64,000 nucleotides of DNA from a virus: positions 32,001 to 96,000 of the IMG/VR virus record IMGVR_UViG_3300010399_000033; one strand, 5' to 3'. A program made the position numbers and the translations under genes. The notes under the pieces are model-generated. The model had not been told where the DNA came from, ran no database searches, and was given only the letters and a program-made list of their open reading frames with translations. This document shows, in pieces, positions 7,225 to 56,191 of this stretch. Position 1 is the first letter of the stretch. Each line of letters opens with the position of its first letter.

Positions 7225-7232
7225 ATTGCCTG

Positions 7233-10944: not shown

Positions 10945-10947
10945 CGC

Positions 10948-11860: not shown

Positions 11861-12255
11861 TTTGCAATCTCCTTGCGAACGTACCTCTCCGAGCGGTTGA
11901 CGAACCGCATGAATGGCTGCTTCCGTCTTCCACACTTGCCTGGCTTACGTTCCTGCATGGCGCGGTGATCGAACCACCAATCCAGATACATGTCGTGAAG
12001 CTCCTTGTCCTTCACGCTGTCCTTGAAATTGGGGTAGTCGAGCTTCAGCACACGGTCTGCCAGCAGCTTGGCGACGGTGACGCGCGGCACGATAGAGCGC
12101 CACCGGTAGTCATTGCTTTTGGTCTCGACAATGCCCTTCCGACTGGAAAGGAACGCCTCCAGATGCGCGCGGCGACGAGCGCGGACCATCAAGCACGTGG
12201 GGTCGTCCTTCAGCTCGACGATCGATATGAACCCGTCGTTTGATGCAATCCACAT
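11857..12255 (-). CDS. Conserved-looking phage hypothetical protein
   Basis: MWIASNDGFISIV...VRAR...DYRWR...DYPNFK; AAGGAG RBS. Confidence 0.72.
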   Translation of the reverse strand: MWIASNDGFISIVELKDDPTCLMVRARRRAHLEAFLSSRKGIVETKSNDYRWRSIVPRVTVAKLLADRVLKLDYPNFKDSVKDKELHDMYLDWWFDHRAMQERKPGKCGRRKQPFMRFVNRSERYVRKEIAK

Positions 12256-12282
12256 TTACCAATCTCCTTTTTCTTTCTGGGA

Positions 12283-12540
12283 TCAGTCGAACCACACCGT
12301 CTGTGGATCGTAATGGCCTGGATAGCAGGGACATGACCGCACCTCGAAGTCCGGCGCGTTGCCCCAGATCTGATGCAGCGTGCTCTCGTCAGTATTTTCC
12401 ATCACGGCATTGATCCATGCCTGCGCCTCCGCAAACTCGCTGTACGTGTAGCGTCCCTGTGCCGGGCGCATCAGCGTGCGCTCGCCATTCTTGTTCACGT
12501 AGGTTGGGACGTAGCGGATGACGTGCGGTCTGTCGGTCAT
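12283..12540 (-). CDS. Hypothetical protein
   Basis: ATG at 12540 with GAGGGG RBS. Confidence 0.65.
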   Translation of the reverse strand: MTDRPHVIRYVPTYVNKNGERTLMRPAQGRYTYSEFAEAQAWINAVMENTDESTLHQIWGNAPDFEVRSCPCYPGHYDPQTVWFD

Positions 12541-12553
12541 TTTCAATCCCCTC

Positions 12554-13804
12554 TCAAGTCCGGAGCGCGACGCGGGTGAGGACGGTTTCCTTGATGCCGT
12601 CCCGCTCCTTGTGCGCCTTGACCGTTCCATCGAACACCACGGAAGTTCCGGGGGTGATAACCCGATCGCCAGTGGCGAACCAAGTGAACACGTTGCCGTC
12701 GACCGTGACGAGCTTCACCAGCGTTGACGGGCCGTACATGGACTCCATCGGACGCGCCGTCGTGATGGTGGCAGCGATGTTGCGCAGGCGCTGCTTGATC
12801 TCGCCGACATGCGTGCTCGACGCCAGCTGCTTCCGCTTGATGTTCAGTTCGGCTTCCCGCTCCATGTGGCGCAGGTAGGCCTGAACACCGGAGCACACCA
12901 GCCCGAGATGCTTGGCCTCGGTGAGGTCGTTCACCACCAGCGTGACCAGGTTTTTCTCGTAGTCGCTGCGCGCGTGCTGCGCGAGCCATCCCTTGATCCA
13001 CGCGACCACTTCGCCGGCACGCTGCGCATGGACTGGGTTGGTTTCGATCTCATTGAGCGCCTTCGCCATGACAGTTCGCGCGTGCTCGTCCGCCTTGAAC
13101 CAGTAGTGCTTGTTCACCAGGCCTGCGGTCGCTTGTCCGATGCCGCTTCCTTCGGCGGCACGCGACACCCAGCCGTAAAGCGTGATGTACGCGGAGGTCA
13201 GCGTCAGCGCTTCCAGCGTGTCGCAGCGGTTCTCGAAATACCCGCGCCAGCAATGCTCGGAGCCCTCATGGATCTGCTCATAGGTGTGCAGACGCGAGGC
13301 AGCGGCGCCGATGAGGCGGGGATCGTTGATGCCGGTGAAATCGGCGAGGCACTGCCGGCCGACCTGCTTCTGTTCACCGTTCTCGACGCTGCGGATGATG
13401 AAGGTGTCGTTGCGGCGACGCCGCTTGTTGCAGTGCTCGCATGTGTCTGGGCTAAGCGCACGAAAACGGTCGTCGACCGTGGCGCCCGTGCTCGACGGAA
13501 CAGTGTGGAACAGCACCGATGCGCCATCGCTCAGGTACTCGACCCGTGCAAGGAATTCCCACCCATTGAGTCGCGGCGCTTCGCCGGTCAGCTCGATCAC
13601 CAGCGCATCGCACTGGTATTCGCGCGTGCGCTCGGTAGTGCTGTCGAAGATGATGGTGTGCGCGCGCGTCACCTTCTCGTGACGCAGAATGGAGACGGTA
13701 ATCTCCGGAGCGCCGAGCTTCACGGCGCGTCGATTGAGCTTCGCGATATCGGCCTGGAAATCAGCCCAGGCCGGCGCGGGGATGGTGAATTCGGTGGTCG
13801 TCAT
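12554..13804 (-). CDS. Early phage protein with Zn-binding motif and probable C-terminal OB fold
   Basis: CEHCNKRRRRN...QVGRQC; C-terminus HVGEIKQR...GTVKAHKERDGIKETVLTR; directly downstream of a sigma70-like promoter. Confidence 0.75.
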   Translation of the reverse strand: MTTTEFTIPAPAWADFQADIAKLNRRAVKLGAPEITVSILRHEKVTRAHTIIFDSTTERTREYQCDALVIELTGEAPRLNGWEFLARVEYLSDGASVLFHTVPSSTGATVDDRFRALSPDTCEHCNKRRRRNDTFIIRSVENGEQKQVGRQCLADFTGINDPRLIGAAASRLHTYEQIHEGSEHCWRGYFENRCDTLEALTLTSAYITLYGWVSRAAEGSGIGQATAGLVNKHYWFKADEHARTVMAKALNEIETNPVHAQRAGEVVAWIKGWLAQHARSDYEKNLVTLVVNDLTEAKHLGLVCSGVQAYLRHMEREAELNIKRKQLASSTHVGEIKQRLRNIAATITTARPMESMYGPSTLVKLVTVDGNVFTWFATGDRVITPGTSVVFDGTVKAHKERDGIKETVLTRVALRT

Positions 13805-41459: not shown

Positions 41460-44400
41460 ATGCTCGATCTCACCAAGGCAGCGAAGCGGCGCATACGCAG
41501 GCGTGCAATGCCTGCGATCTCGCGCACGCTGGTTGCGAGGGTCGCACAGCGCCGGAACGACGAGGTCGCGAGTGCGCGAGAGGCTGCGTACAAGACGATC
41601 TTCGCGCCGGCAGTTCACCCGCCGGGGTCGACGCCTGACAAGACATTGGCGCAGGACGAAGCCATCGGCGAGTCGCTGGCGTGGTCGGCGGGCAATGCTG
41701 TAGCCGCAGCTGGTGCGATCGCAATGTCCTCGGCTTACGCCGAGGGGATGGCATTCCCCGGTTACGCCTACTTGTCGATGCTGGCGCAGCGGCCCGAATA
41801 CCGCCGGATGTCGGAGATCCTGGCGCAGGAGATGACGCGTAAGTGGATCCGCCTGACCTCGTCCGCGTCGGACGACGACAAGCAGCGTGAGGTCAAGATC
41901 CGCCAGTTGGCTGACCTGATGGATCGAGTCAAGCTGCGCGATGCCTTCTGCACTGCTGCCGAGCATGACGGATACTTCGGACGAGGTCACCTGTTCATCG
42001 ACACCGGCACCGAGGACGACAACGAGCTGAAGACGTCGATTGGTGATGGTCGCTCGGAGCAGTCCAAGACCAGGGTCGGAACCAAGAACCCGGTCCGCGC
42101 GATCCGTCCGGTCGAGCCGGTGTGGGCCTATCCGATCGATTACAACAGCAACAATCCACTCAGCGCCAACTGGTATACGCCGAGCCGTTGGTACGTCATG
42201 GGCACTGAGACGCACGCCACGCGTCTGCTGACCTTCGCGAGCAGGCCGGTCCCCGACATGCTCAAGCCCGCCTATTCGTTCGGCGGACTCAGCCTGTCGC
42301 AGATGGCCAAGCCGTACGTCGACAATTGGCTGCGCACGCGCCAGTCGGTGTCGGACCTTGTCCACTCGTTCTCGGTTCAGGGGGTGAAGACCAATCTGCA
42401 GGATCTGCTGATGGCCGATGGCGATCAGCTGATGCGGCGGATCGAGCTGTTCAACCTGTGCCGCGACAACCGCGGTGCCATGCTGCTCGACAAGGAGACC
42501 GAGGAGTTCTTCAATGTCGTGACCCCGCTGGGCACGCTCGACCACCTGCAGGCACAGGCGCAGGAGCAGATGTCGTCGGTGTCCGGCATTCCGGTGGTCA
42601 AGCTGTTCGGCATTACGCCGTCAGGCTTGAACGCTAGCTCAGACGGCGAAGTGCGCACGTTTTACGACACCATCCTAGCCAAGCAGGAGCGGGTGTTCAG
42701 CTCACACCTGCGCACGGTGCTGTATTTCCTGCAGCTGTCGCTGTGGGACGAGGTCGATCCGTCGATCACCTTCAGCTGGGTGCCGCTGTGGTCGCTCGAC
42801 GCAGCCGGCGAGGCCGGCGTGCGTGAGACCGAGGCGCGTACCGACGCGACGCTGATCGATGCCGGTGTCATCCGTCCCGAGGAAAGCCGCAAGCGTGTGG
42901 CGTCCGATCCGTCCACGCCATACGCCTCGCTCGACGTCGACGACGTGCCGATCGACCCGGCCAATGTCCCCGACCTGGAGGAGATTCCGCCGGACCTCGA
43001 CGCCGCGGCTGGCGGTGGTGGCGGCAAGTCTGCGCCGGGCGGGAAAGGCAAAGGCGCGGGCGGAAAGCCGGCAGGGTCGCCGCAGGGCCCAGTCGACCAT
43101 GACGAGGCGGTGCCGGAGCTTGGGGACGACGACGAGGAAGAACTCGACGATCTGTCCGACATCATCCCCAAGACGCCGCGCGAGCTGCGCGAGCAGCGCC
43201 GGCCCATCCCGCCGGAGGACCGCACCGGTCTGCGCGCGACCCGCCCCCGCCCTCCCCGCGACGTGACCGCGCGCGATCTCCGCAATGACCGGCGTGCTGC
43301 CCGAGGCGCGAACCCGCGCGCTGCGATGGATGCCGAATTCAAGGAGTCGGACCACCCGCGGAAGGATGACGGTAAGTTTGGCTCTGGCAGCGGTGGAAGC
43401 GCCTCGGAACAAAAGAAGCACTACGTTCAGGACATCCCGACCACACGTGAGCTTGATGCCTACCAGAAAAGCGTCGATGCGCGGGTGGGAGAAATCGAGG
43501 CGGCTGGTGAGGATCACCCGGACAACAGGGAATACGCAGCGCTTGCGCACATGGCGACGGTGCTGGATGACTACAAAGCCACGCCATTGTCGCAGAAAGC
43601 CAACACGCGTGCTGCGTTCCTCGCGGGCAATGGCGGTGTCTTGGCCGCTGCCGGCATCATGCGCAATGTGAAGAAGGGCGGCACTGCGGAGATCACCAAT
43701 GTCGGAAGCCTGGAGAAGGGTGGCGGCACTCTGGTCATGCAGAAGCTGGTGTCGGCAGCACGTGAGAAAGGTGTGCGCGCGATCGATCTGACATCGGAAG
43801 CGCGCGAGTTCTACACGAAGCTTGGCTTCAAGCCGGTGGGCGGTGAGGGCAGCAGCAAGATGCGCCTGGCCCTAGACGAATCCAAGTTCAACGAGATGGA
43901 CCATCCGCGTGATGCAGACGGCAAGTTCACCTCGGGCGGCGGCGGTGGCAAATCCGGCGGAGCTGATCCCGACGAGGTCAGCGCAGTCTCCAAGCTGGGA
44001 AAGACTATCCTGAGCAAAGCCAAGTCAGCTAAGACGGGCAATGAATTCTGGGAATCGTTGACCCAGTCCGAGACAGACCATATTGCGGACCATCCGGTGC
44101 TTGGGCCGATGCCTGTCGATGCGATATTCAAGCATGCACAGAAGGTGGATGTTGCATCCGTCAGCCAGTCGATCATTGACAAGGCCAAATTGGCCAAGAC
44201 GGGAACGGAGTTTGCACAACAGCTGACCAGTGCCGAGATCCAGGAGCTTGTAGAGGATCCTAAGTACGAAAAGATGGACTGGCATGACATCATGGCGGAC
44301 CTTGGCGCGGGGTCCAAGCCGGCGGTCAGCCAGGGGATCATGGATAAGGTCGCGGCGGCGAGCAGCTGGAAGCAGTTTGCGAACTCGCTGAGCGACGAGC

Positions 44401-46748
44401 AGATGAACGAGATCGACGCAACGTTCGGCAAGGAGATGCCAACGAAGGAGATCTTCGCGAAGCTTGGAGGCTCGACCGAGGACAAGCTCTCTCTCAGCCA
44501 GTCCATCATCGACAAGGCTAATGAGGAGGATAATGTCACCGGCTTTTTGAATTCGCTGACTGGGGAAGAGTTGACTGAGCTGGAAAAGAAGATTCCCGAC
44601 TATGACAACATAAGCGGCGGGGAGATCCTGGCCCACGCGAAAAACGCGATTGGCGAAGGCGCGAAGGAAGCTGCGGAGAGCATCAATCCGGACATCATGA
44701 ACAGCACGCTCGGCTTCAAGAGTGTCAATGGGTGGACGTCGGCGCTGACCGATCAGGAGATCGATGAGCTGAAGAAGTTCTATCCGGACACGGCGACCGG
44801 CAGCCCCGAGTCAATCAAGGCTGTATTCGAGGACCTTAAGAAGAAGGCCGAGGCGGCGCAGGTGCCTCATACTGAGCAGGCAGGCGAGCAGCTTGTGGGT
44901 GGCAGCAAGGTGGCCGAGGAGGAGCCGGCCAAGAAGTACAGCTTCACATTCTCGTCTCCGGAGATGTATCAGCCGTCGTCCAACAAGCACGAGCACCTTG
45001 CCAAGTTCGAGAAGGTCATCAGTTCTGCAGCCAAGAACGATGGAAAGTACCGCGCTCTGCTCAAGAAGCTAATCGACGAGGCGCCGAAGTTTGGCAATGA
45101 CGGACTGATCGATGGCCTCAAAGGCAAGATGATCGAGTCGTTCGAGAAGCTGAGTCAGTATTACAGCAACAAGGGCGACGCCGCGCAGGCGGACAAGATC
45201 AACGCCAAGGTCGCGCAGATGAAGGCTGCGCATACCAACGAGGCGGCGAAGTCTAAGCTGAACGCGGAAGTCGCCGCGATCCAGAATACGGAGAAAGCCG
45301 CGAAGCCTGCACCGGCCCCCGCGACGTTTGTTAAACCAAACTCGGCGGCGTTCAAGACCGATTTGGACACGATCGATGCCTCCGGCGGTAGCCACCATTA
45401 CAAGGGCTTGGCGAAGGCGGTTGCCGGCGCGAGTCATGGCCTGAGCTTTGCGGACGTGCATGACTCGCTGACCAGCGAGGAGATCAAGGCGGTCAGTGAG
45501 AAGTTCGGTAGCGTGGAAACTGCATTTTACAGCGCGATCGACAATCCAATTTCCATGTCAAAGGCGGTGCAGGCGTATGCGCCGAAGGGCGAGAAACCTG
45601 CCGCTGCTGAGACGAATAAGGCGGCCGAGAGCAGCGCGCCGAAAGTTCCGGCACCCAAGCTTAGTCAGGGTATCGTCGACAAAGCTAAGGAGATTAGCAA
45701 TCCGAACAATTGGTACGTGCTGCTGAATGCCGCGCAGAAAAATGAGGTGTGGGCGAAGTACACCGATGCAGACGGTGACATGACCCCGGCGATGAAGGTG
45801 CAGGCGCACGCGGATGCGGTTGCTGCATCGAAGGCGACATCGCAGCCTGAGGCGCCCGCGGAAGCTGCGAAGATTGAGGAGAAGAAGCCCGAACCCAAGA
45901 AGCCGTCCGGTATCGACCCTGAGCACATTCAGAGCAGCGTCGAATCCTGGAAAGCCAACGAACTCAAGGGCGGCAATTGGGAAAAGGAGCAGATGAACAA
46001 CCTGCTCAAGCAGGTCAAGGATCCGGCCAATAAGGCTGCCCTCGAGCAGAAGCTCAAGGACTCGCACGAGCTGACCGAGAAGAAGAAGAAGGCGAAGGAA
46101 GCCGAGATCCAGGAAGCACAGAAGAAGTATGCGGAGGAGCAGAAAGCTTCCAATGAGAAGAAGAAGAAAGAAGCTGAGAAGGCTCTGGCCGCGTACAGCA
46201 GCGACCCGATCGTTCATCGCCAGCTGAAAGCGGTTGCTGCCATTGCCGGGCATGAGAATGTCGCGTCGATGATTGGATATGTGGAGCAGGCACACGCCAA
46301 AGCTAAGGGGGCCGGATACGAGGATATGAGCGGCCCCGAGGCAATGGCGGTTCAGCTGTACAGTGAGTCGCACTATGCATCGCTCAATGAACAGCTGCGC
46401 CAAGGCGCAATGAATGAGAAGAACTACGAATTCAAGCTTGCGCTGTCATCGGCATTGCAGAAAATGCCGATCCATGCCGGAACGGTCAAGCGTGGAGCTT
46501 CTTTGAGTGCACAAGCTTTTGGGCTTTACAAGCCGGGCATGATCATTGAAGAACGCGGATTCATGTCCACCTCGACTAACAAGCCGTTCAGTGGTAATTA
46601 CCAATTCCATGTCGAGAGCAAGACCGGGCGGAATATCAAGAAGCTTTCTTCCCACTCTAGCGAGAACGAAGTCCTGTTCCCTGCTGGGACTCATTTCAAG
46701 GTGACCGAGATCGAAGGCACCACAATTCATATGGAGGAAATGACATGA
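41460..46748 (+). CDS. DUF1073-type portal protein with ~1250-aa extension containing GNAT, helical repeats and a C-terminal ADP-ribosyltransferase
   Basis: Portal: FPGYAYLSMLAQRPEYR, PDMLKPAYSFGGLS, GIPVVKLFGITPSGLNAS. GNAT: EKGGGTLVM...AREFYTKLGF. ART: VKRG, GFMSTS, ENEVLFPAGTHFKV. Confidence 0.9.
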   Translation: MLDLTKAAKRRIRRRAMPAISRTLVARVAQRRNDEVASAREAAYKTIFAPAVHPPGSTPDKTLAQDEAIGESLAWSAGNAVAAAGAIAMSSAYAEGMAFPGYAYLSMLAQRPEYRRMSEILAQEMTRKWIRLTSSASDDDKQREVKIRQLADLMDRVKLRDAFCTAAEHDGYFGRGHLFIDTGTEDDNELKTSIGDGRSEQSKTRVGTKNPVRAIRPVEPVWAYPIDYNSNNPLSANWYTPSRWYVMGTETHATRLLTFASRPVPDMLKPAYSFGGLSLSQMAKPYVDNWLRTRQSVSDLVHSFSVQGVKTNLQDLLMADGDQLMRRIELFNLCRDNRGAMLLDKETEEFFNVVTPLGTLDHLQAQAQEQMSSVSGIPVVKLFGITPSGLNASSDGEVRTFYDTILAKQERVFSSHLRTVLYFLQLSLWDEVDPSITFSWVPLWSLDAAGEAGVRETEARTDATLIDAGVIRPEESRKRVASDPSTPYASLDVDDVPIDPANVPDLEEIPPDLDAAAGGGGGKSAPGGKGKGAGGKPAGSPQGPVDHDEAVPELGDDDEEELDDLSDIIPKTPRELREQRRPIPPEDRTGLRATRPRPPRDVTARDLRNDRRAARGANPRAAMDAEFKESDHPRKDDGKFGSGSGGSASEQKKHYVQDIPTTRELDAYQKSVDARVGEIEAAGEDHPDNREYAALAHMATVLDDYKATPLSQKANTRAAFLAGNGGVLAAAGIMRNVKKGGTAEITNVGSLEKGGGTLVMQKLVSAAREKGVRAIDLTSEAREFYTKLGFKPVGGEGSSKMRLALDESKFNEMDHPRDADGKFTSGGGGGKSGGADPDEVSAVSKLGKTILSKAKSAKTGNEFWESLTQSETDHIADHPVLGPMPVDAIFKHAQKVDVASVSQSIIDKAKLAKTGTEFAQQLTSAEIQELVEDPKYEKMDWHDIMADLGAGSKPAVSQGIMDKVAAASSWKQFANSLSDEQMNEIDATFGKEMPTKEIFAKLGGSTEDKLSLSQSIIDKANEEDNVTGFLNSLTGEELTELEKKIPDYDNISGGEILAHAKNAIGEGAKEAAESINPDIMNSTLGFKSVNGWTSALTDQEIDELKKFYPDTATGSPESIKAVFEDLKKKAEAAQVPHTEQAGEQLVGGSKVAEEEPAKKYSFTFSSPEMYQPSSNKHEHLAKFEKVISSAAKNDGKYRALLKKLIDEAPKFGNDGLIDGLKGKMIESFEKLSQYYSNKGDAAQADKINAKVAQMKAAHTNEAAKSKLNAEVAAIQNTEKAAKPAPAPATFVKPNSAAFKTDLDTIDASGGSHHYKGLAKAVAGASHGLSFADVHDSLTSEEIKAVSEKFGSVETAFYSAIDNPISMSKAVQAYAPKGEKPAAAETNKAAESSAPKVPAPKLSQGIVDKAKEISNPNNWYVLLNAAQKNEVWAKYTDADGDMTPAMKVQAHADAVAASKATSQPEAPAEAAKIEEKKPEPKKPSGIDPEHIQSSVESWKANELKGGNWEKEQMNNLLKQVKDPANKAALEQKLKDSHELTEKKKKAKEAEIQEAQKKYAEEQKASNEKKKKEAEKALAAYSSDPIVHRQLKAVAAIAGHENVASMIGYVEQAHAKAKGAGYEDMSGPEAMAVQLYSESHYASLNEQLRQGAMNEKNYEFKLALSSALQKMPIHAGTVKRGASLSAQAFGLYKPGMIIEERGFMSTSTNKPFSGNYQFHVESKTGRNIKKLSSHSSENEVLFPAGTHFKVTEIEGTTIHMEEMT

Positions 46749-47137
46749 GCAAACCCAGGGACGAGTTCGTTGATCGGACGGATGAGGCGCCACCTCCCGG
46801 CATGCTGCCCGACGGCACGCTGAACGTGGTGGAGGAAGGTCCTCCCTCGCAGGAGGAGGTTGATGCTGATGACCTCAACGAGTACGACGAGCTGTTCGGT
46901 ATCGGCGCAGGAGCAGAGACTAAGAAGGAACAGAACGAGGTCGGCTACGTTGGTCCGGACGGCGACCGGCCGAATGGACAGCGTTGCGATAAGTGCACGA
47001 TGTTCGTTCGTGCAGCTGAGGATGCCTCCGATGATCCCGGCACATGCACCGCAGTCAATGGTCCGATCGACCCGGCCGGGTGGTGTGAGCTATACAAAGC
47101 CGAAAGTGAGAATGTGGGCGGGCTCCAAGAGGAGTGA
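46745..47137 (+). CDS. Acidic protein with C-terminal HiPIP-like 4-Cys domain
   Basis: VGY...GQRCDKCTMF...CTAVNGPIDPAGWCELY. Confidence 0.7.
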   Translation: MSKPRDEFVDRTDEAPPPGMLPDGTLNVVEEGPPSQEEVDADDLNEYDELFGIGAGAETKKEQNEVGYVGPDGDRPNGQRCDKCTMFVRAAEDASDDPGTCTAVNGPIDPAGWCELYKAESENVGGLQEE

Positions 47138-47574
47138 CGTCAATGGCTGCTGCTTTCATGGACTTCCTTATCGTGGTCGTCGGCCTGGGTATCATCGTTG
47201 GGCTGATGTGGATCGCGCTCGATAAGATCGGAGGGTTCGATCCCTTCTTCGTGCAGATAGGCCGCTACGCTGTCGGCGGTGCAGCCGTCCCGCTGTTCCT
47301 GTACGCACTCAAGGGCGTGCTGTTCAGCGGCGGCCACGGCGTCACCGTCACCCCCGGTGGGGTGTTGGAGTTTGGCATCGGCCTGATTATCATCCTTCTC
47401 GTCGTCTACCTGCTGTTCCTGCTGATCGATGCCTTCGTTCCGGCACCGTTCCAGGGTCCGGTGCGCTATATCGCCGGTGCGCTGGCCCTGATCGCTCTGA
47501 TGTACGTCGCTGAGCAGGTGCTGGTTGGCGGCGGTCTGGGTCTGGGCCTGCAGCCCTTTCGACTCAGCCGCTGA
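47134..47574 (+). CDS. Four-TM membrane protein (internal duplication of a two-TM unit)
   Basis: Hydrophobic helices; repeated I(G/V)...ID...PF...RY..GA pattern. Confidence 0.7.
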   Translation: MTSMAAAFMDFLIVVVGLGIIVGLMWIALDKIGGFDPFFVQIGRYAVGGAAVPLFLYALKGVLFSGGHGVTVTPGGVLEFGIGLIIILLVVYLLFLLIDAFVPAPFQGPVRYIAGALALIALMYVAEQVLVGGGLGLGLQPFRLSR

Positions 47575-47619
47575 CCCTGTTCCGTCAATCTGTCACGGAT
47601 GCTAGAGAGGAGAACGAAT

Positions 47620-48003
47620 ATGGACTTGGACTCTGATCTGAAGAGGCTGAATAATCGCGTCGCCGCGTTGGAAGCTGCGGCCATCGCGCCGGCAGCCGAG
47701 CTTCCGATGGTTCCCAAAACAGGAGTGGCGGCAACTTCGCCATTCGACGATCGACTCGCGCAGCTAGAAGGTATGGTAGAGATGCTGGCCACGCATGTTC
47801 AGTCGCTGCAGGCTGAGCGGAGCGGGGTTGACGCGTTGGCCGATCGCGTCACGGCGTTGGAGGAAGCGCGGAACGCTGTGGCGGCCGATGACGATGACAC
47901 TGGCGAGGATCCCCTTGGGCTCGAAGCCGGGCCCGAGGGCGAAGGCGAGCCGCATGAGCGCGAGCACCTCAAGAAATCGAAGACGAAGAAGCACGGGAAG
48001 TAA
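47620..48003 (+). CDS. Coiled-coil hypothetical protein
   Basis: RVAALE / RLAQLE / RVTALE heptads; GAGGAG RBS. Confidence 0.6.
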   Translation: MDLDSDLKRLNNRVAALEAAAIAPAAELPMVPKTGVAATSPFDDRLAQLEGMVEMLATHVQSLQAERSGVDALADRVTALEEARNAVAADDDDTGEDPLGLEAGPEGEGEPHEREHLKKSKTKKHGK

Positions 48004-48008
48004 TTCCC

Positions 48009-48521
48009 ATGCTGTCCGACGCGGCGTCCGTCGCCCTGTTTGGGACCATCGCAGGATTGGCGACTACTGTGTCGCCAATCATCCTGGCTGTTCTCATGGG
48101 ACGGCAGCGGCGTCGTGAAAAGGCGGATGACTACGCGCGACAGGACCAGGTCGCGGAGAAGGCGGCAGCTGCCAACTCGGCGGCTGCTGCGAAGGCCGCG
48201 GAAGTGGCTAGCTTGCTGCTGGCCGCAAATGAGCGGGTAGCGCGTCAGACGTCCGACTTGGCTGCAAAGACGAACTCCAAGATTGATCAGGTTCATGTAT
48301 TGGTCAATTCCAACTACACACAGGAGATGGAAGCTCGGTTGGTTGCGCTTGATGCCCTGGTGGGGATGACCGAGGAGGTCGCACGTCTCAATCTGGCGGC
48401 AGGTGCGGAACCAACAGAAGCTTCTAAGATCGCATTGGAAAACCTGAAACGCACGGCTGAGGGGCTGAGGAAGTCTCTTGCTGAGCGATCGTTGGCCACT
48501 GTGGCGGCGCAATTGCAATGA
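48009..48521 (+). CDS. Membrane-anchored coiled-coil protein
   Basis: N-terminal TM; IDQVHVLVNS motif. Confidence 0.65.
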   Translation: MLSDAASVALFGTIAGLATTVSPIILAVLMGRQRRREKADDYARQDQVAEKAAAANSAAAAKAAEVASLLLAANERVARQTSDLAAKTNSKIDQVHVLVNSNYTQEMEARLVALDALVGMTEEVARLNLAAGAEPTEASKIALENLKRTAEGLRKSLAERSLATVAAQLQ

Positions 48522-49300
48522 AGAATCCCAAGACACTGCGACCAGTGCAGCCGTCGGCGGGGATCCGCATCGACTATCAGCGCCGGCTGAAGAAACTGAT
48601 CGACAAGATGCACGAAAGTGTAATTTATTGGCTTAGAGCGGCATACCGCGCGGACACACCTCACCTCGCACGTGACGCCTCGCCGGCAACCGAGCTGCAG
48701 GCGGCAGTGAGACGTCTGGCCAGGCGGTGGATTAGGAACTGGAATGACGCCGCGCCGAAGCTCGCCAAATGGTTCCTGCTCAGTGTGCAGCAGCGGTCGG
48801 ATAGCACGCTGCATCGTATCCTCAAGGACCACGGCTTCAGCGTTCAATTCAAGATGACGCCGGAAATGCAGGACGCGTCCACGGCCGTGGTCAAGGCTAA
48901 CGTGGCTTTGATCAAGTCGATCCCGCAAAAGTACTTCGGACAAATCGAGCAGATCGTCATGCGGTCGGTGATGACCGGCCGCGACCTGCAGCAGGCGACG
49001 CGCGATTTGCAGCAGCAGTTTGGAGTAGCGCGTCGCCGCGCTGAGCTGATCGCTACTGACCAGAACAACAAGGCACACTCCGCACTCCAGCACATCAGGC
49101 AGCTACAACTGGGGATGACCGAGGGGATCTGGATCCATTCCGGCGGTGGACGTGAGCCACGGCCCGAACACGTTAAGATGGATGGCAAGCGTTACAAGCT
49201 TGCGGAAGGCATGTGGGATCCACATGAACGGAAGTACGTACAGCCAGGTGAGCTTATCCGGTGCAGATGCGTCCATAAAGCTGTGATCCCGGGGCTGTGA
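48518..49300 (+). CDS. MuF / SPP1 gp7-like head morphogenesis protein (short form, no toxin extension)
   Basis: NVALIKSIP, RAELIATDQNNK, W.HSGGGREPRPEH, PGELIRCRC. Confidence 0.9.
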   Translation: MKNPKTLRPVQPSAGIRIDYQRRLKKLIDKMHESVIYWLRAAYRADTPHLARDASPATELQAAVRRLARRWIRNWNDAAPKLAKWFLLSVQQRSDSTLHRILKDHGFSVQFKMTPEMQDASTAVVKANVALIKSIPQKYFGQIEQIVMRSVMTGRDLQQATRDLQQQFGVARRRAELIATDQNNKAHSALQHIRQLQLGMTEGIWIHSGGGREPRPEHVKMDGKRYKLAEGMWDPHERKYVQPGELIRCRCVHKAVIPGL

Positions 49301-49303
49301 GCA

Positions 49304-49513
49304 ATGCGATGCAGCTACTGTGGATCTAGGCGTCATTCTCTGGCGTTGTGTCCGAAGACTCATGAGGGCTCTGCTGCCCGCCTTCATCTTCGCTGCGATT
49401 ATTGTGGTGCTCGCGACCACGATTGTGCAGCATGCCCGAAAACAGCGGGCGGTACGGATCGCCGTTCGGGGAAAGTAGACGATCACTTCGTTCTGGATAG
49501 AGGACGACGTTGA
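49304..49513 (+). CDS. Double CCHC zinc-knuckle protein
   Basis: CSYCGSRRHSLALC and CDYCGARDHDCAAC (C-x2-C-x4-H-x4-C twice). Confidence 0.7.
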   Translation: MRCSYCGSRRHSLALCPKTHEGSAARLHLRCDYCGARDHDCAACPKTAGGTDRRSGKVDDHFVLDRGRR

Positions 49514-50037
49514 TGGGACTCATGATTGAGGCTCCGGACCGTGGTCCAATTCCACGTCACTCCGTTCTCACACTGCGGTGCGACGTTCATCCAGGCGGCT
49601 TTTTCTCAGCACCGCGTGAGCAGACGTTCACGCGCGGCTGTTTCACGGATCAGTACAGCGATGCGATGCAGGCGGGGTGGAAGGAAGTCTTCAGAAGTGA
49701 TCGATTGTTCCTCTGCCCTGAATGTAGCGGCAAGCCGGGAGATGGAGCTGTACGACAGTCTGCACCGACGCAGCAGGGAAGCTCTGGACAACATGCCCGT
49801 AGGCATCGCGTTGGGAAGCTTGCCAGCAACCGTCATGTTTTGGGGGCGGAAAGCGCCGACACGGTTCGTCGGATGGATCGAAAAGAAGCTACAAGATCGC
49901 GACGACGCTAGAACGCTGTACGGACGCGCAGGACTGGACCCACATCGTTGTGCAGGGCTGATGCGATCGCGCGTTGATTACGCGGCCATCGTGCCTCGTC
50001 GCCAAATCCCGATTTCCCTGAAGAAGGAGAGGCTGTC

Positions 50038-50364
50038 GTGACACCTCGGCTATTCCCTATCCTGTACCCCAGTCACGAGCTGAAGGACGACGTGTCGCGC
50101 TTGTGTCGAGCCGGTCACGCGTTTCTTCTGACCGGCTTTCCATGGGATCTGCTGGCCGCGCATGAGGAGCAGGCAATCAAGAATCACGGCCAATCGTTGG
50201 CACGCCTTGCTGAGCGCGGTGGACTTGATCCTGAGGAAATGCTGGCTGTGATGCAGGATCGTGGCGTGCGCTGGCACGGCCTATCAGTGGTCGAGGCGCA
50301 GACAGAGCTGTTGAAGATCCTGGTGCGTTCCGGCATGGTGCCGAGCATCTTCTCTCCTGCATAA
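50038..50364 (+). CDS. Hypothetical phage protein
   Basis: PWDLLAAHEEQAIKNHGQSLARLAERGGL; AAGGAG RBS. Confidence 0.65.
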   Translation: MTPRLFPILYPSHELKDDVSRLCRAGHAFLLTGFPWDLLAAHEEQAIKNHGQSLARLAERGGLDPEEMLAVMQDRGVRWHGLSVVEAQTELLKILVRSGMVPSIFSPA

Positions 50365-50450
50365 ATGAAACGGTGGAAAACGTGCATAGCTCTGCTATCG
50401 GAAGATTCATTATTGGTCTGTCCCCCATTTCGGGCAGTGAGGAGAAGTCC

Positions 50451-50732
50451 ATGACTACGGTTTACACGGGCCAGACAGTAATGAGCATGGTCACCCTATC
50501 TGGTACTGCGGGAACCGCCCTGACGGCGCCGGGGACGCTTGCGGGCGATGCGGTGATGCAGGCTTTCGACCTGGTCTCGGGTGCGGATGTGCAGGCTGTG
50601 TTGGCGCCTCGCGTACCGGCAGATGGAAAGCTAATGCAGTTGACGGCGGACGAGTCTGGTCATTTGGCTCTGGTATTGCTTCGTCGCATGGTGCCGGTTG
50701 AGCAGGTGATTGAGCTGGTTCCGGCGATCTGA
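50451..50732 (+). CDS. Hypothetical beta-rich, possibly structural protein
   Basis: GAGGAG RBS before the ATG at 50451. Confidence 0.55.
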   Translation: MTTVYTGQTVMSMVTLSGTAGTALTAPGTLAGDAVMQAFDLVSGADVQAVLAPRVPADGKLMQLTADESGHLALVLLRRMVPVEQVIELVPAI

Positions 50733-50747
50733 TCCTTCGGGACTTCA

Positions 50748-52286
50748 ATGAAGATCGATGATCTGTACAGGGTCCTCGCGCGGGACGCCGATCCTTTGAT
50801 TGCGGCAGGGCTGGCGCTTGTCTCGCCGGCCGGCCGTGTGCTTTTTTTGAAGCGCAGTGGAGCCAAGAAGTTCAACGGCGGAATGTGGTGTCTTCCGGGC
50901 GGGAAGGCCGAACGCGGCGAGACACCGGTGCATGCCGCCCTGCGCGAGACCGAGGAAGAAACCGGGTGGACGGCCGGTCCGGATGATAAGCCGCAACGCG
51001 CGGGCGCTGTACAGTACTATGAAGTGACCTACATCGTGTTTCGGCTAAATGTCGCCGAGGAGTTCGTTGCAGATCTGTCGGACGGCGAGCACACCGAGTA
51101 TGCGTGGGCATCCCCCGACGATCCGCCGCAGCCGCTGCATCCGGGATTGGGCGAGGTGCTCCCGCAGCTGGCGGCAGACGAGGACTTCCGCGCCAGTCGC
51201 GACAAGATGGCGAACGCGGCACGCGATCTGATTGAGCGCAAGGTTGCAGCTCAGGATGCGAAGGGCGAGTCCGAGCACCGTATCGTGATCGAGTTCAATG
51301 GCGACTTCGCCATGGGTGAATTCATTCGTACCCTGCAAGCTTTGGGATCATGGGGCGCATCGCGCAATGTCGATATTTCTGTGGAGGATGTTGGAACACG
51401 CCAAGAGCTGGAGGGTAAGGGATTCCGGACCAAGTTTGGCTGGGACGGCGATGGTGCGGACAAGATCGTCTCTGCTGAGCTGGATGGACAAGACCTCCTC
51501 GCGATGGATGCGGACTTCGACGAAAGCAAGCATCCACGCGACCACGGGAAGTTCTCGTCTACATCTGGTGGAAGCGGCGAGGAACCGACGCCGAAGGCCA
51601 AGAAGCAACAGGCAATCGATCCAGCCAAGATGAAGAAGGTCGGGTCGCAGATGGGCTCCAATCCCGGAGGAGTTTATGAGGATGCGGATGGGACCCGCTT
51701 CTACGTCAAGAAGGGCAAGTCTCCCGAGCATGTGAAGAACGAGCTTGCTGCGGCCGATCTCTACGCCCTCGCTGGATCCCCGACGCTGGAATACACGCCC
51801 ACCACCAGCGGTGACTACATCGCGACCAAAATGTCGAAGCTCGACAAGCCGCGCGCCGATCAGTTCTCCCCGGATGAAAAGAAGAAAGCGCAGGAAGACT
51901 TCGCCACGCATGCTTGGCTGGCAAATTGGGATGCAGCGGGACTTGACTTTGACAATGTTGGCACGGTTAGCGGAAAGCCGACGGCCCTTGATCTTGGCGG
52001 CGCGATGCTCTACCGCGGAATGGGTGCCCCCAAGGGCGACAAGTTCTCGGCGCAAGCTGGCGAGTGGGACAGCATGCGCAATTCGCAGGTCAACCCGCAA
52101 AACGCGAAGCTGTTTGGAGGCATGTCTCCGGAAGCTTTGAAGAAGTCAGCCAGCAAGGTCGCCAAGATTCCCGATGACGCGATCCGTTCTGTGGTTCAGA
52201 AACGCGGTCTTCCCGCAGCGGTGGCTGACAAGTTGATCTCGCGCAAGAACGATATTGCAAAACGTGCCGGACTTGGGAGTGTGTGA
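50748..52286 (+). CDS. Nudix hydrolase fused to a small domain and an atypical (HipA/PI3-PI4K-like) kinase domain
   Basis: Nudix box [24 protein letters not shown]; kinase-like GSNPGGVY...FYVK...NELAAADLY...NWDAAG..DN...LDLGG. Confidence 0.8.
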
Positions 52287-53932
52287 TGGCTACCTTGGCG
52301 ATGGATGAGGGCATGGCTCGGATCTTCCGTCGACCGAATGACCAACTGGCATTTGATCGGAAGTCGGTTCGCACGATTGATGCTGATGGGCGCCTGCATG
52401 TCAGTGTAGCCAATATCAGCAAGGCTTGCGTCAACCCGTACATCGGACGTGAGATCCCCGGATGGAAGGAGCTTGGACTCGATTCGAGCAAGATCTATTA
52501 CCTGCTGCGCGATCCCAAAGAGCTGGAAAAGGGCGCAGCCACATTCAACAATCTGCCGCTGCTCGACGAGCATAAGCCAGTCACCGCCGACGATCATGAC
52601 AAGGAAAGGACTGTGGGGTCGACTGGCACTGATGCGGTCTTCAATTATCCGTATTTGCAGAACTCGTTGGTGGTGTGGACACGTGAGGCCATTCAGGGAG
52701 TCACGTCAAAGAAGCAGAGACAGCTATCGTCAGCATACCGCTACAAACCTGACATGACGCCGGGTGTGTGGGAGCCGACTGGTGAGCGTTACGACGGCGT
52801 CATGCGCGATATCATCGGAAATCACGTCTGCCTCGTGGAGGAAGGGCGTGCAGGAGCCGACGTTGTGGTCGGCGATAGTGCAGAGGAGCTAGCCAAGATG
52901 GCGAAGGCAAGCAAGAAGGCGACTGCGACGCGGCTGGGCCTCATGGCGTCGGCCACGATCGCGTACACGGCGCTGCCGTACACGCTCGCACAGGATGCGA
53001 AGCCGCTGACGGCCATGGATATCATGCCGTGCTTCAACGGCGTGACGGCGAAGAACTGGAAGGACAAGAAGCCCGAGGTGGCCAAGAAGCTGGCAGCGCT
53101 GCTCAAGCCGCGCTACAGCAATTACGCGCAGGACGAGGGCGCGACTCCGGACGACGTGACATTGAAGCTGCTCGACATGCTCGATGGCGGCCAGCCCGAT
53201 GCGATGGGTGAGTCGATCGACGAGTCGGTCAGTGAGCCGCAACACAATGCTATGGAAGCGGCGGCGGAAGGTCACTCGAACCTCGGAATTCCGCAGGAGA
53301 CCGGCAAGGAATTCGTCAAGAAGGACGCGGCCAAAGATGAAGGCGGTGTCGAAGCGGAAATCCTCAAGTTTCTGTCTGACAAGCTCACCCCCGAGGATTT
53401 GGAGCTGATCAAGGGGATGTTGGCGAAGGAGGACGAGGCCGAGGAAGCGGCCGGCGGTGAGGGTGAAGGTGACCCTGTCGTCAATGAAAACCCCGACGAG
53501 GAGAAGGCTCAGGACGAGCCGCCGCCGTTCAAGGGACGTCCCAATCCCGGCGGCGCGATGGACAATGAGGAGAAGGAGAAGGACATGGTCACGAAGACCG
53601 CGATGGATGCGGCTATCGAGGATGCGGTGAAGAAGGAGCGTGTTCGGCAGGGCAAGATCCGCGAGGCGTTCGATGCGGTCGCCCCGTATGTCGGCCGGCT
53701 GCAGATCGCGGCCGACTCCGCTGACGATGTGTACGGCGCTGCGCTCAAGAGCCTGGGCGAGGACATCAAGGACATCCCCCCGGCGGCGTTTCCGCATATT
53801 CTCAAGCATTACCCGCGTCTCGATGCCCGGCGCACCGGTACGCGTCAGATCGCGCAGGATAAGGCTGAGGGCGCGACCAAGTCTTACGGCGAGATGTTCC
53901 CGCAGGCGGGCCGCATCACGCGCGTGGGCTGA
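52283..53932 (+). CDS. DUF2213 prohead protease/scaffold-like protein
   Basis: [13 protein letters not shown]...[33 protein letters not shown]; acidic scaffold-like C-terminus. Confidence 0.88.
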
Positions 53933-53982: not shown

Positions 53983-55005
53983 ATGGAACTGATCCGAAAG
54001 GCGCTGCTCAGCAGCTCCGATCCTCGGGCGATGGCGTTGTACATGGCTGGCGGATTCCAGACCAGCGTGTCGACGCAGCCGGCCCCGGCTGTCGAAGGTG
54101 ACTTCGCCTCGAACAACCCGTATTTCACTGTGGATGCGGGCCCGGGCGCGTTGGTTGCCGGCGCTTCTGGTGTCACCATCGGCCGGTTTGCCTGGATTGT
54201 GCCCCCGCACGACCCGGACGGGACCGCGTCGATTGTCAACAGCTTCGGCACCGGTCCGGTGGCGGGGTTCGTTCACCGCGAGCAGCAGGGCTTGATCACG
54301 GCATTCCTCGACAATGCCGAGATGACGATCCCGAAGGGCTTCCCCGTGACGCTTCACAACGGCGGCGACTTCTGGGTCAAGAACAACGGTACGACCCAGG
54401 CCCTCCCCGGCCAGAAGGCCTACGCGAACTACTCCAATGGAGCCGTTACCTTCGCCGCGACGGGGTCGCTCACCAACGCTACCGTTACCGGCTCGATCGG
54501 CCCGCAGTCTGCCACCATCACCGGCTCGATCTCGGGCGACGTTCTCACCGTCACCGCGGTGGTGGGCGCGACGCTCGTCCCGGGAGCCGTCCTGTCCGGC
54601 ACCGGCGGTGGCGGTGTGGCGTCCGGAACCAAGATCACGTCGCAGATCTCGGGGACGGTTGGCGGTGTCGGCACCTACTACGTCGATCCCGGCAATCAGA
54701 CGGTTACGTCGACCTCGATCACCGCTGCTTACGGACTGCTCACCATCGCCTCGGTGTCCTCGGGCACTTTGGGTGTCGGTGACGTCCTGTCTGGCACCGG
54801 CGGCGGCGGCGTGACTTCCGGCACGTTCATCTCGGGCCTCGGCACCGGCTCGGGCGGCACTGGCACATACTACGTGTCGCCGTCGCAGACTGTGGCTGTC
54901 GGCACTGTGATCACTGCCGGACTCAACGTCGAGACCAAGTGGATCGCGATGTCCGCCGGTCTTGCTGGCGAGCTGGTCAAGATCTCGGATCACGCTAACG
55001 GCTAA
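53983..55005 (+). CDS. Capsid cement/decoration protein with two Gly/Thr-rich beta repeats
   Basis: [32 protein letters not shown]; duplicated [21 protein letters not shown]...GTYYV..QTV. Confidence 0.75.
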
Positions 55006-55075: not shown

Positions 55076-56191
55076 ATGAACCTTCAGGAAGCCAGGGACC
55101 TGTGGGAGGCTCACCGGCCCCTTCACGAGAGCCGCGGTGCATACATGCGTGGCGTTCGGATGTATGTGCCCGACGAGTGGAAGCACAACTACGATCTCGC
55201 CTGTGACGCGATGCCTGAGTTGGCCATGGATGCGCAGGCGACGATGCAGACCGATGCGAACTCGGCTGTGCCGCTGATCCTCACCACCATGATCGACCCG
55301 TCGGTGTTCAAGGTGCTGTTCGCACCCAACAGGGCGGCCGAGATCTTCGGCGAGCAGCGCAAGGGGACATGGCTCGACGAGACCGCGATGTTCCCGCAGG
55401 TCGAGCACACCGGCGAGGTCTCCAGCTACGGAGACTTCAACAACAACGGCCGTGCTGGCGTCAACACCAACTGGCCCCAACGCCAGAGCTATCTGTTCCA
55501 GGTGATCAAGAAGTACGGCGAGCGTGAGCTTGAGCGCGCCGGACTCGCCCGCATCAACTGGGTCAGCGAGATCGACGAAGCTGCCGCGACCGTGATGAAC
55601 AAGTTCAGCAACTACACCTATTTCTTCGGGGTGTTGGGGCTGCAGAATTACGGTCTGTTGAATGACCCTGGTCTGTCGGCGGCACTCACTCCGGCAACCA
55701 AGGCGGCCACCGGCACTGCATGGCTCAATGCTGCCGGAATTCCTGTCGCCACCGCGAATGAAATCTATGCCGACATCCAGGCCATGTTTTGGCAGATGCA
55801 GGTACAGACCGCGGGCCTGGTCACCGCCGAAGACAAGATCGTCCTGGCGATGGCTCCGACCACCAGCGTGGCGCTGAAGACCACCAACAGCTTCAACGTC
55901 AACGTCTACGACTTGCTGAAGAAAAACTTCCCCAATATCCGCTTTGAGACGGCGGTGCAGTACGGGGCGCAGACGGCCGGCAATCCGCAGGGAGTTGCGG
56001 CCGGCAACATGGTGCAGATGTTCGTGGAGTCCATCGAAGGACAGGACACGGGCTACTGCGCCTTCAACGAGAAGGCACGCTCGCACCCGATCATCCGGCA
56101 AGTTTCCTCCTTCGAGCAGAAGCAGACGGCCGGAACGTGGGGAGCGATCATCCGTATGCCGTTCGCCCTGGTCCAGATGATCGGCGTTTGA
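55076..56191 (+). CDS. Major capsid protein (DUF2184-like)
   Basis: AMDAQ...E.TGEVSSYGD.NN.G, YFFGV.GLQNYGLLNDP.L, AGTWGAIIR.P. Confidence 0.9.
   Translation: MNLQEARDLWEAHRPLHESRGAYMRGVRMYVPDEWKHNYDLACDAMPELAMDAQATMQTDANSAVPLILTTMIDPSVFKVLFAPNRAAEIFGEQRKGTWLDETAMFPQVEHTGEVSSYGDFNNNGRAGVNTNWPQRQSYLFQVIKKYGERELERAGLARINWVSEIDEAAATVMNKFSNYTYFFGVLGLQNYGLLNDPGLSAALTPATKAATGTAWLNAAGIPVATANEIYADIQAMFWQMQVQTAGLVTAEDKIVLAMAPTTSVALKTTNSFNVNVYDLLKKNFPNIRFETAVQYGAQTAGNPQGVAAGNMVQMFVESIEGQDTGYCAFNEKARSHPIIRQVSSFEQKQTAGTWGAIIRMPFALVQMIGV

Follow-up and report, generated by a model that had tools for sequence, protein, structure and literature searches.

Phages are known to inject a few proteins together with their DNA. 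What is understood of the choice, loading and release of such diverse enzymes comes mainly from T4. This phage loads enzymes, including the ADP-ribosyltransferase (ART) Alt, into its prohead, trims them at a short consensus site and injects them with the DNA. Its protease gp21 (S77) cuts at [LI]-x-E, removing an N-terminal targeting peptide.

Three other systems are relevant here. Polyvalent proteins have been proposed to be processed by a zincin-like MPTase (Iyer, Burroughs, Anand, de Souza, Aravind 2017; PMC5512222); the words "HPR" and "linker" do not occur in that paper, nor is the tag described below mentioned. The MuF polymorphic toxins of temperate phages place a variable toxin on a conserved head protein, and no junction motif is described for them (Jamet et al. 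2017; PMC5576092). Among PB1-like Pseudomonas phages, the mature capsid protein of KPP12 begins directly after A-M-D, as established by Edman sequencing (PMC3474789), while the capsid proteins of E217 and Pa193 are visible only from residue 66. The portal of E217, a homologue of the portal studied here, has a C-terminal barrel that projects into the head (PMC10329688), and a DUF2213 homologue in Pa193 was named a scaffolding protein by the authors of that work.

Here, we describe a locus of an uncultured phage in which one short peptide cassette precedes three different cargo segments. The stretch of DNA analysed (hereafter the window) comprises 64,000 nucleotides, i.e. positions 32,001 to 96,000 of the 110,243-bp virus record IMGVR_UViG_3300010399_000033. 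Using a 21-position profile, we find exactly three copies of the cassette (E 3e-14 to 1e-12) and no fourth site in the whole record; a looser regular expression, run in six frames, adds only three chance matches, none of which is true to the cassette. Two copies lie at residues 622 and 804 of a 1762-aa portal fusion (41460-46748), and the third at residue 252 of a 512-aa Nudix protein (50748-52286). Translation at these sites reproduces the three peptides quoted in a preliminary description of this DNA (Table 1).

The codons for the H, P, R, G, and F residues vary at synonymous positions among the three DNA copies, with a mean column identity of 76%. As such, the cassette is kept as a peptide and not as DNA, which agrees with the earlier view that its conservation is at the peptide level. 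A Pfam scan of the three cassettes alone returns no family at E<=10. In an AF2 model, cassette 3 has a pLDDT of 38-58 and thus appears to be a linear motif within a disordered stretch. Sequence comparisons indicate that the cassette consists of two parts—i.e. a widespread tag and, in front of it, a lineage-specific A-x-D. The consensus initially proposed, A-x-D-x(1-3)-F-x-E-x-x-H-P-R-x(2-3)-G-K-F plus a Gly/Ser linker, is valid for the lineage of the window, but its leading A-x-D is unconserved across the wider tag family.

Table 1. Cassettes, cargo modules and neighbouring head genes, with positions in the window.
Feature	Position	Strand	Basis
Portal domain, residues 1-520 of the 1762-aa fusion; anchor for modules 1 and 2	41460..43020	+	Pfam, PHROG
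Low-complexity R/G/P/D-rich linker, portal to cassette 1	43021..43322	+	R 15%, G 14%, P 14%, D 12%
Cassette 1: A-M-D + tag A-E-F-K-E-S-D-H-P-R-K-D-D-G-K-F + G/S linker	43323..43397	+	Profile E 3e-14
Module 1: probable GNAT acetyltransferase (weak match)	43398..43868	+	Pfam, PDB
Cassette 2: A-L-D + tag E-S-K-F-N-E-M-D-H-P-R-D-A-D-G-K-F + poly-G linker	43869..43952	+	Translation, profile
Module 2a: helical repeat arm, A/K/E-rich	43953..46259	+	Composition
Module 2b: putative arginine-type ADP-ribosyltransferase	46260..46748	+	Pfam ART E 4e-11, ADPrib_exo_Tox E 1e-9
Short MuF head protein, 260 aa, stand-alone, without toxin domain	48518..49300	+	Pfam Phage_Mu_F E 2e-14
Nudix hydrolase + small middle domain; front of second cargo protein	50748..51500	+	Pfam NUDIX E 2e-19
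Cassette 3: A-M-D + tag (15 protein letters not shown; rare x2 spacer) + S/T/G linker	51501..51575	+	Translation, profile
Module 3: predicted protein-kinase-like (CtkA/HipA-like) domain, 236 aa	51576..52286	+	AlphaFold, Foldseek
DUF2213 protein: candidate head-maturation protease + scaffold-like tail	52283..53932	+	Pfam DUF2213 E 3e-46
Cement/decoration protein	53983..55005	+	Pfam XM1_gp53_minor_capsid, Phage_cement
Major capsid protein; A50-M51-D52 = nt 55223-55231	55076..56191	+	Alignment with PB1-like maturation site

The preliminary description held that each cassette opens an enzyme-bearing segment, and our analyses bear this out with support that differs among the three modules. The portal that anchors the first two belongs to Pfam Phage_portal_3 (PF06381; E 1e-72 over residues 103-462) and PHROG 146 (portal; E 2e-98). 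Module 1 (157 aa) is probably a GNAT acetyltransferase, as earlier claimed, based on a marginal Pfam match to Acetyltransf_1 (21.9 bits vs a cut-off of 20.7) that covers only the C-terminal half of the profile; support is weak, and the best PDB match is 3GY9 (E 0.019). Cassette 2 precedes a repeat arm of ~780 aa that includes four S-Q-[SG]-I-[IMV]-D-K repeats and for which a Pfam scan returns no family. The ART placed at the end of this long arm is upheld by both Pfam families, each above its cut-off, and by a match to Tre1 (6DRE/6DRH; E 1e-13) in which the K-R-G, S-T-S, and E-N-E motifs are aligned. By sequence, module 2b thus has the Arg, Ser-Thr-Ser, and Glu-x-Glu elements of R-S-E arginine ADP-ribosyltransferases. 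Tre1, a Serratia T6SS Arg-ART, is its closest solved relative and is used by another delivery system.

The segment behind cassette 3 had been called an atypical kinase, and the structural model agrees. Specifically, its AF2 model (pLDDT 96.1, pTM 0.91) has as best Foldseek match the atypical kinase CtkA of H. pylori (3AKL; TMq 0.58), followed by many protein kinases and aminoglycoside phosphotransferases. Sequence identity to CtkA, which again serves another delivery system, is only about 13%. Among 41 homologues, residues K45, N117-W118-D119, N127, and G141-G142 are invariant, and D139 of the D-L-G-G motif is conserved in at least 90%. Together, the modelled fold and these residues point to a CtkA/HipA-like member of the protein-kinase-like fold, whose hallmarks are two lobes, a Gly-rich loop, a Lys, a catalytic Asp/Asn, and a metal-binding Asp; eukaryotic kinases are among the Foldseek matches. 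In relatives, the Nudix domain and the kinase-like module are fused to DUF2213.

The window shares features with each of the systems above. Like polyvalent proteins (PMC5512222), it combines unrelated effector domains (ART, a probable GNAT, Nudix, kinase-like) on single polypeptides whose genes lie beside those for portal and terminase and for which packaging and injection are predicted, and its tag-bearing relatives carry ART-PolyVal and InPase, signature domains of that class. Both cargo proteins have at least two unrelated effector or enzymatic domains (portal, GNAT with weak support, and ART in one; Nudix and kinase-like in the other), and both are encoded next to virion genes of a portal-terminase phage. 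By contrast, the junction in the window is a head-protease-type site plus a tag. The MPTase or assemblin-like peptidase is a common theme of polyvalent proteins rather than a strict requirement, and MPTase was rejected as the processing enzyme here, as PF18818 is absent from the genome.

The differences from T4 concern both the protease and the signal. The window genome lacks S77, its likely site is A-[ML]-D instead of [LI]-x-E, and loading would occur by fusion to the portal or to a neighbour of the protease. The conserved peptide lies downstream of the predicted cut, and would thus be exposed rather than discarded. As with MuF toxins, a conserved head protein from the packaging module carries variable effectors, but the anchor is the portal, and MuF itself is a short separate gene whereas MuF toxins combine an N-terminal MuF with a C-terminal toxin of at least 100 aa. 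We identified no immunity gene beside the effectors of the window.

The closest resemblance in head-gene organisation is to PB1-like phages. A putative TerL and the portal, MuF, DUF2213, cement, and capsid genes follow one another in this order on one strand, and the capsid gene has A-M-D at the position where the mature N-terminus of the KPP12 capsid begins. The TerL is a 600-aa ORF assigned by position and by homology to other loci, with no Pfam match. KPP12 likewise encodes a PF06381 portal with a C-terminal cargo domain, DUF2213, cement, and capsid (Pfam), and a MuF homologue (phmmer). Unlike the window, KPP12, E217, and Pa193 have a single portal cargo domain (InPase) that lacks the H-P-R tag.

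This resemblance bears on the residues in front of the tag. The A50-M51-D52 of the window capsid aligns with A62-M63-D64 of KPP12 and Pa193, and A-M-D is present in 10 of 10 related capsid genes, shifted by a few columns in Bcep781. Head proteins of the window phage contain AMD 8 times against 1.1 expected (~7-fold), a count reached by 0 of 2000 shuffles. The enrichment is confined to A-M-D and A-[MLQ]-D; no overall A-x-D enrichment is found in the two cargo proteins (8 observed vs 14.5 expected, and 8 vs 5.9). Within the lineage, Asp occupies the cut position in 35 of 42 tags, and the full A-x-D in only 19 of 42. In the wider family A-x-D is not conserved, and elsewhere the residues just upstream of the tag are again particular to each lineage. 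A-x-D is a lineage-specific addition that matches a real maturation site and is not part of the general tag. Experimental support for this site is indirect, as it comes by analogy from the KPP12 capsid, i.e. the capsid of a distant relative rather than a cassette.

The DUF2213 protein is the most likely candidate for the head-maturation protease, based on its PHROG annotation and on the exclusion of other proteases. It matches PHROG 2229 (head maturation protease; E 4e-116) and Pa193 gp24 (scaffolding protein; E 4e-69), it has an invariant His and Ser, and it contains four A-M-D sites and one A-F-D directly ahead of the DUF2213 domain. The S78, S77 (PF03420), ClpP, and S49 proteases were rejected as the prohead protease, all being absent from the genome. 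A comparison of DUF2213 with the HK97 protease gp4 by hhalign detects no similarity, and an ESM Atlas search with the DUF2213 protein returns no protease neighbour; the protease role is thus a proposal.

Beyond the window, the core of the tag is [AS]-[ED]-[FW]-x-E-x-x-H-P-R-x2-3-G-[KRQ]-F, 16-17 residues long and followed by a Gly linker. Its profile retrieves 3,537 protein clusters at E<=1e-3, of which 341 reach E<=1e-10. Hundreds of instances on unrelated contigs all keep the H, P, R, G, and F. Proteins with multiple copies have 2-18 of them, with a median spacing of 260 aa and a median tail of 321 aa beyond the last copy (5th percentile 115). The first copy is found either at residues 10-60 or behind an anchor of 420-700 aa. 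A tblastn search of phages and plasmids with the short tag was too insensitive. Full-text literature searches of incomplete coverage (on the motif, DUF2213, capsid targeting, and polyvalent-protein proteomics) recovered no description of the tag.

Pfam annotation of 67 profile matches includes TopoIB, ARTs, Nudix, Zeta, InPase, GNAT, three portal families, DUF2213, and a Mu-like protease. The majority of modules behind the tag belong to no Pfam family. The position of the tag follows a simple rule: it always precedes a module, or stands at the N-terminus of small proteins in head gene clusters. Gene context was drawn from 43 viral loci. Homologues of the head module of the window are found in 24 of 33 viral loci, and the tag lies inside the portal ORF in about 20. 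Its carriers are portals from three Pfam families, fusions with DUF2213 or Nudix, and separate genes located between those for portal and capsid. Cultured carriers with the same head module include the Burkholderia phages phiE131 and phiE058, whose portal tag lies at residue 552 behind S-V-D and whose capsid protein has A-M-D; the tag also occurs in Xanthomonas PhiXhv-5 and Pseudomonas Orimi01. The proposed link of the motif to domain boundaries and head genes therefore stands. The expectation that a profile scan would find it opening swappable enzyme domains in portal, MuF, DUF2213 or Nudix genes is borne out for portal, DUF2213, and Nudix proteins but not for MuF, which is absent from the sampled tag-bearing families. 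Some stand-alone proteins open directly with the tag (e.g. M-S-K followed by F-N-E-S-D-H-P-R), which fits a tag that may work at the N-terminus. The PB1-like InPase portals and Dolphis gp117, which has kinase and ART modules, are untagged, so the tag is not required for cargo as such; the portal-Nudix fusion of Bcep781 also has no tag.

Considering these features, we favour, at slightly better than even confidence, a composite junction from which modules would be freed in the head by a protease and delivered with the DNA. Its first piece, A-[ML]-D followed by a small or acidic residue, would be the cut site of the maturation protease of the lineage; the second is the widespread tag, and the third the flexible Gly/Ser linker. 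Cargo would enter the procapsid through covalent fusion to a head protein. Specifically, 12 copies of the GNAT and arm-ART would hang from the inward-facing C-terminus of the portal, and the kinase-like module would ride behind the Nudix domain, whose gene is translationally coupled to that of DUF2213. As the head matures, the protease, for which the DUF2213 protein is the likeliest candidate, would cut after Asp with the same chemistry as in capsid trimming. The predicted fragments are ~182 aa (GNAT), ~956 aa (arm-ART), and ~258 aa (kinase), each starting with the tag like the stand-alone tagged cargo of other phages. The freed enzymes would then exit with the DNA and modify host proteins or nucleotides ahead of phage gene expression. 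We infer that the cassettes are cleaved by this protease, that the modules are packaged and injected, and that the tag has a partner; its favoured role is that of an N-terminal handle by which a module is positioned inside the head or leaves through the tail.

The modules could instead stay uncut on the 12 portal copies and on the Nudix protein, with the tag serving for docking or as a hinge that holds each module on DNA, the capsid wall or a head protein, and A-x-D belonging to the motif in its local form. Docking peptides are indeed typically linear motifs that are conserved within disordered sequence and precede a flexible linker. In the general tag, no cut-site residues are conserved upstream of position -3, and the portal C-terminal extension of E217 and Pa193 is simply invisible rather than demonstrably cleaved. 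We nonetheless consider tethering improbable, given that one tag per module and stand-alone proteins that begin with the tag fit separate polypeptides better, and that the residues before the tag copy the proven capsid cut site of the lineage and change with the lineage. In addition, 1,100 extra residues per portal subunit seem awkward during DNA packaging and ejection.

We put forward a wider idea only tentatively. The H-P-R peptide may be a general N-terminal address label for proteins travelling with phage DNA, with a recognition partner that widely differing tailed phages have in common (e.g. the packaged DNA or the exit channel) and exposed by the head protease of each lineage. Alternatively, the tag could act in the host, where after delivery, cut or uncut, it would steer effectors to a common host factor or the entering DNA, or control their activity or turnover. 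In favour of this reading, the same tag is found with three or more portal families and with different types of protease, which suggests a partner that very different phages share, e.g. DNA or a conserved component of the host. We rate this possibility somewhat lower than tethering: the tag resembles no known host-binding motif, a role in the capsid would account just as well for its strong association with head-gene neighbourhoods, and the cut-site-like residues in front of it would be left unexplained. A PDB search with the tag profile gives no match, hence no structure shows the tag bound to anything.

The distribution of the tag places one short peptide ahead of thousands of unrelated modules in phage head gene clusters, and the lineage of the window pairs it with a cut site that is experimentally backed in a cultured relative. 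The vague idea of polyvalent-protein processing can thus be turned into precise predictions of cut bonds, new N-termini, and fragment sizes in the virion. The tag also offers a means of searching metagenomes by sequence for injected enzymes of anti-defence or host takeover. Should it suffice for loading or delivery, proteins could be packed into phage particles with a simple tool; if the address-label reading is true, the tag would be the phage counterpart of a secretion signal, able to load and deliver chosen proteins.

Modules are also gained or lost at the cassette. The portal of a related locus (L005) is 98-99% identical to that of the window but has one extra cassette-bounded module. The crossover between the two lies inside cassette 2, i.e. 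a precise gain or loss of one module, and a core of 35 identical nt is common to two of the L005 cassettes. By sequence comparison, the difference between these portals is a whole module gained or lost by recombination within the cassette. The crossover and the identical core could suggest that the cassette is mainly an evolutionary joint—i.e. a linker conserved for module exchange by homologous recombination and with little function as a protein. Of the explanations considered, we give this one the least weight. Most copies are too dissimilar in DNA to recombine efficiently, and the synonymous sites of the three copies in the window diverge while the peptide is kept and H, P, R, G, and F stay invariant, which argues for selection on the peptide.

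Translation confirms the three cassette peptides at 43323, 43869 and 51501, and a profile of the three returns those 3 sites only from the whole genome (E 1e-12 to 3e-14). As proposed in the preliminary description, conservation lies in the peptide and not in the DNA, with copies differing at synonymous codon positions, and all three copies mark the start of a module. The enzymes assigned to these modules hold up to different degrees. The 157-aa segment behind cassette 1 is present, with only a marginal match to GNAT acetyltransferases, while the A/K/E-rich repeat arm behind cassette 2 does end in an Arg-type ADP-ribosyltransferase (ART); among solved structures, the T6SS effector Tre1 is nearest to it (E 1e-13). 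The atypical kinase placed behind cassette 3 is recovered as a 236-aa domain without a Pfam family and with a predicted protein-kinase-like fold, for which Foldseek gives H. pylori CtkA as the closest structure; the domain's AlphaFold model, with 40 homologues as input, has a pLDDT of 96. This domain is a mobile module in its own right: other phages have it joined to ART, Nudix, TopoIB, DUF2213, MuF or GGDEF domains. It is also matched in genes annotated as ADP-ribosyltransferase in the cultured phages Dolphis, Jeremy, fHe-Yen8-01 and ST4 (86–95 kb). In the model of the whole Nudix protein, cassette 3 has a pLDDT of 38–58, which makes the cassette a linear motif within disordered sequence and not a piece of a folded domain.

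The window covers bases 32001–96000 of a 110,243-bp IMG/VR virus record with a completeness rating of 99%, and its head module occupies 38.7–56.2 kb with all genes in the same orientation. The HiPIP-like ORF also adjoins the portal gene in two related viral loci (L005 and L015). Translational coupling links the Nudix-kinase gene to the DUF2213 gene, and relatives have the two as a fusion. At the N-terminus of the Nudix protein (50748–50790), a short helix ends in L-A-R-D (residues 10–13), with the Nudix fold starting from about residue 17; this helix could be a removable leader.

Genes of the head module, in order, with the matches on which they are assigned
Feature	Coordinates	Basis and remarks
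Candidate large terminase (TerL), 600 aa	38729–40531	Position, and homologous ORFs that precede the portal in related loci; Pfam gives nothing at E ≤ 0.01
Portal fusion, 1762 aa	41460–46748	PF06381 (E 1e-72, residues 103–462); marginal GNAT 720–790; ART 1623–1752
HiPIP-like ORF	46745–47137	Overlaps portal stop codon (ATGA); Pfam HIPIP 21.9 bits against a cut-off of 22
Four small ORFs		Between HiPIP-like ORF and MuF
Short MuF	48518–49300	
Three small ORFs		Between MuF and Nudix protein
Nudix protein, 512 aa	50748–52286	
DUF2213 protein	52283–53932	
Cement protein		Follows DUF2213 protein
Major capsid protein		Follows cement protein

The A-x-D of the cassette consensus, put forward as a maturation cut site, is a feature of this lineage, where an Asp precedes [AS]-[ED]-[FW] in 35 of 42 tag instances and the full A-x-D is found in 19 of the 42; the general tag lacks it. 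The capsid protein supplies independent evidence on the cut site. In the window it is a homologue (E 3e-21) of the capsid proteins of the Pbunaviruses E217 and Pa193, and its A50-M51-D52 aligns with their A62-M63-D64. In cryo-EM of both phages, the capsid protein is visible from residue 66 only (PMC10329688, PMC11456595), and the E217 authors suggest either cleavage or disorder of the unseen N-terminal part (PMC10329688). The N-terminus of the KPP12 major capsid protein was determined by Edman sequencing (PMC3474789, Fig. 1 legend), and we find that this sequence begins at residue 65 of the capsid gene product, right behind A-M-D. The KPP12 head module matches that of the window by Pfam (PF06381 portal with C-terminal InPase, DUF2213, cement, capsid), and its ORF18 is a MuF homologue (phmmer). 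All 10 capsid genes aligned from related loci contain A-M-D; in that of cultured Bcep781, MAFFT sets it a few columns upstream. The capsid protein of phiE131 has it as well.

Across the 16 head-module proteins of the window, A-M-D occurs 8 times against 1.1 expected, a count reached in 0 of 2000 shuffles: at cassettes 1 and 3, at the capsid site, four times in the DUF2213 protein and once in TerL. In four lineages (window 52283–52360; L050 5686–5730; L001 11431–11470; L008), the DUF2213 domain has a conserved A-F-D plus R or K immediately before it, also in protein P0012 with its N-terminal fusion of Nudix-kinase cargo. This motif may serve for self-processing. Among the portals, that of the window has L-A-Q-D at residues 63–66, and that of KPP12 (L039, 2056–4353), which is PB1-like, has V-A-M-D at residues 69–72 and a C-terminal InPase at residues 635–753 with no H-P-R tag. 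The first 93 residues of the Pa193 portal are without density and without LC-MS peptides.

As to the protease, homologues of S78, S77, ClpP, S49 and MPTase are absent from the 110,243-bp genome. We infer that the DUF2213 protein is a candidate head-maturation protease: its gene sits where protease-scaffold genes do, its family is labelled 'head maturation protease' in PHROGs, a His and a Ser are invariant, and it holds many of the A-M-D sites. Against this role, DUF2213 has no similarity to the HK97 protease, and the Pa193 homologue was treated by its authors as a scaffolding protein (PMC11456595).

A narrow back-translated pattern recovered 33 viral contigs. A tag profile built from 42 instances, searched against 1.84 billion cluster representatives, matches 3,537 proteins at E ≤ 1e-3, of which 341 reach E ≤ 1e-10; it has no match in the PDB. 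The logo of 436 instances reads [AD]-A-[ED]-[WF]-[DN]-E-S-x-H-P-R-x3-G-[KRQ]-F-[GTA]-x-G-G-G, with no conservation upstream of tag position −3. The first copy lies near the N-terminus or behind an anchor of 420–700 aa, successive copies are one domain apart (median 260 aa), and a domain always lies downstream of the last (median 321 aa, 5th percentile 115). Some stand-alone tagged proteins have only 3–7 residues before the tag, others a helical leader of 16–70 aa. The expectation that the tag opens varied domains is borne out for portal, DUF2213 and Nudix proteins; MuF, also expected, is absent from the families that Pfam lists among 67 tag matches. These include enzymes (TopoIB, ARTs including ART-PolyVal, Nudix, Zeta toxin, InPase, and GNAT) and head families (portals PF06381, PF06074, and PF04860, DUF2213, and a Mu-like protease).

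Homologues of the window's head module occur in 24 of the 33 viral loci, and the tag lies inside the portal ORF in about 20. In a different lineage with a PF04860 portal (L040, IMGVR_UViG_3300021519_000049; 2384–13072), seven tags are spread over four genes between portal and MuF, each preceded by [LM]-A-K-x-[FW] or K-x-[FW], not Asp. Outside the window's lineage, agreement in the residues immediately before the tag is 2–2.7 times more frequent within a protein than between proteins, and there are distinct local signatures such as V-A-A-G-D-F, L-I-E-K-S-A-A-E-W, and L-A-K-x-W. A universal tag combined with protease sites particular to each lineage would produce this pattern; common descent of paralogous cassettes could also play a part.

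Giant tag-punctuated proteins (P0091, P0079, P0051, and P0075; 2,500–7,300 aa) carry 6–18 copies, the maximum of 18 being in one of 7,334 aa. They include ART-PolyVal, InPase, C39-type papain-like peptidase and FtsK/SpoIIIE domains, and most of their inter-tag modules have no Pfam family. They fall among the polyvalent proteins described by Iyer et al. (2017), a group to which the window's system also belongs. Cargo also exists untagged, as in Dolphis gp117 and the InPase domain of the KPP12 portal. In the former (L038, 5060–8728; 1,222 aa), kinase-like and ART parts lie behind helical repeats.

The C-terminus of this portal family points into the head (E217, PMC10329688), so the portal fusion would hold 12 copies each of the GNAT and arm-ART modules inside the capsid. 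Cutting after Asp would then release all three modules, each starting with the tag and mimicking stand-alone tagged proteins. Such a system would work like the protease-processed internal proteins of T4. Neither the tag nor a cut site with a tag retained on the product was found in the literature searched.

New here are the A-M-D site anchored by experiment in the capsid of the relative KPP12, and module gain or loss at the cassette. The portal of L005 (IMGVR_UViG_3300005467_000044) is 98% identical to that of the window over residues 1–823 and about 99% over the arm and ART, and has one extra 184-aa unit, i.e. a cassette plus a 156-aa module without a Pfam family (L005:4104–4571). Window cassette 2 matches one L005 cassette in the upstream flank and the next one in the downstream flank, and those two L005 cassettes have an identical 35-nt core in common. 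The difference is a recent gain or loss of one module through recombination inside the cassette.
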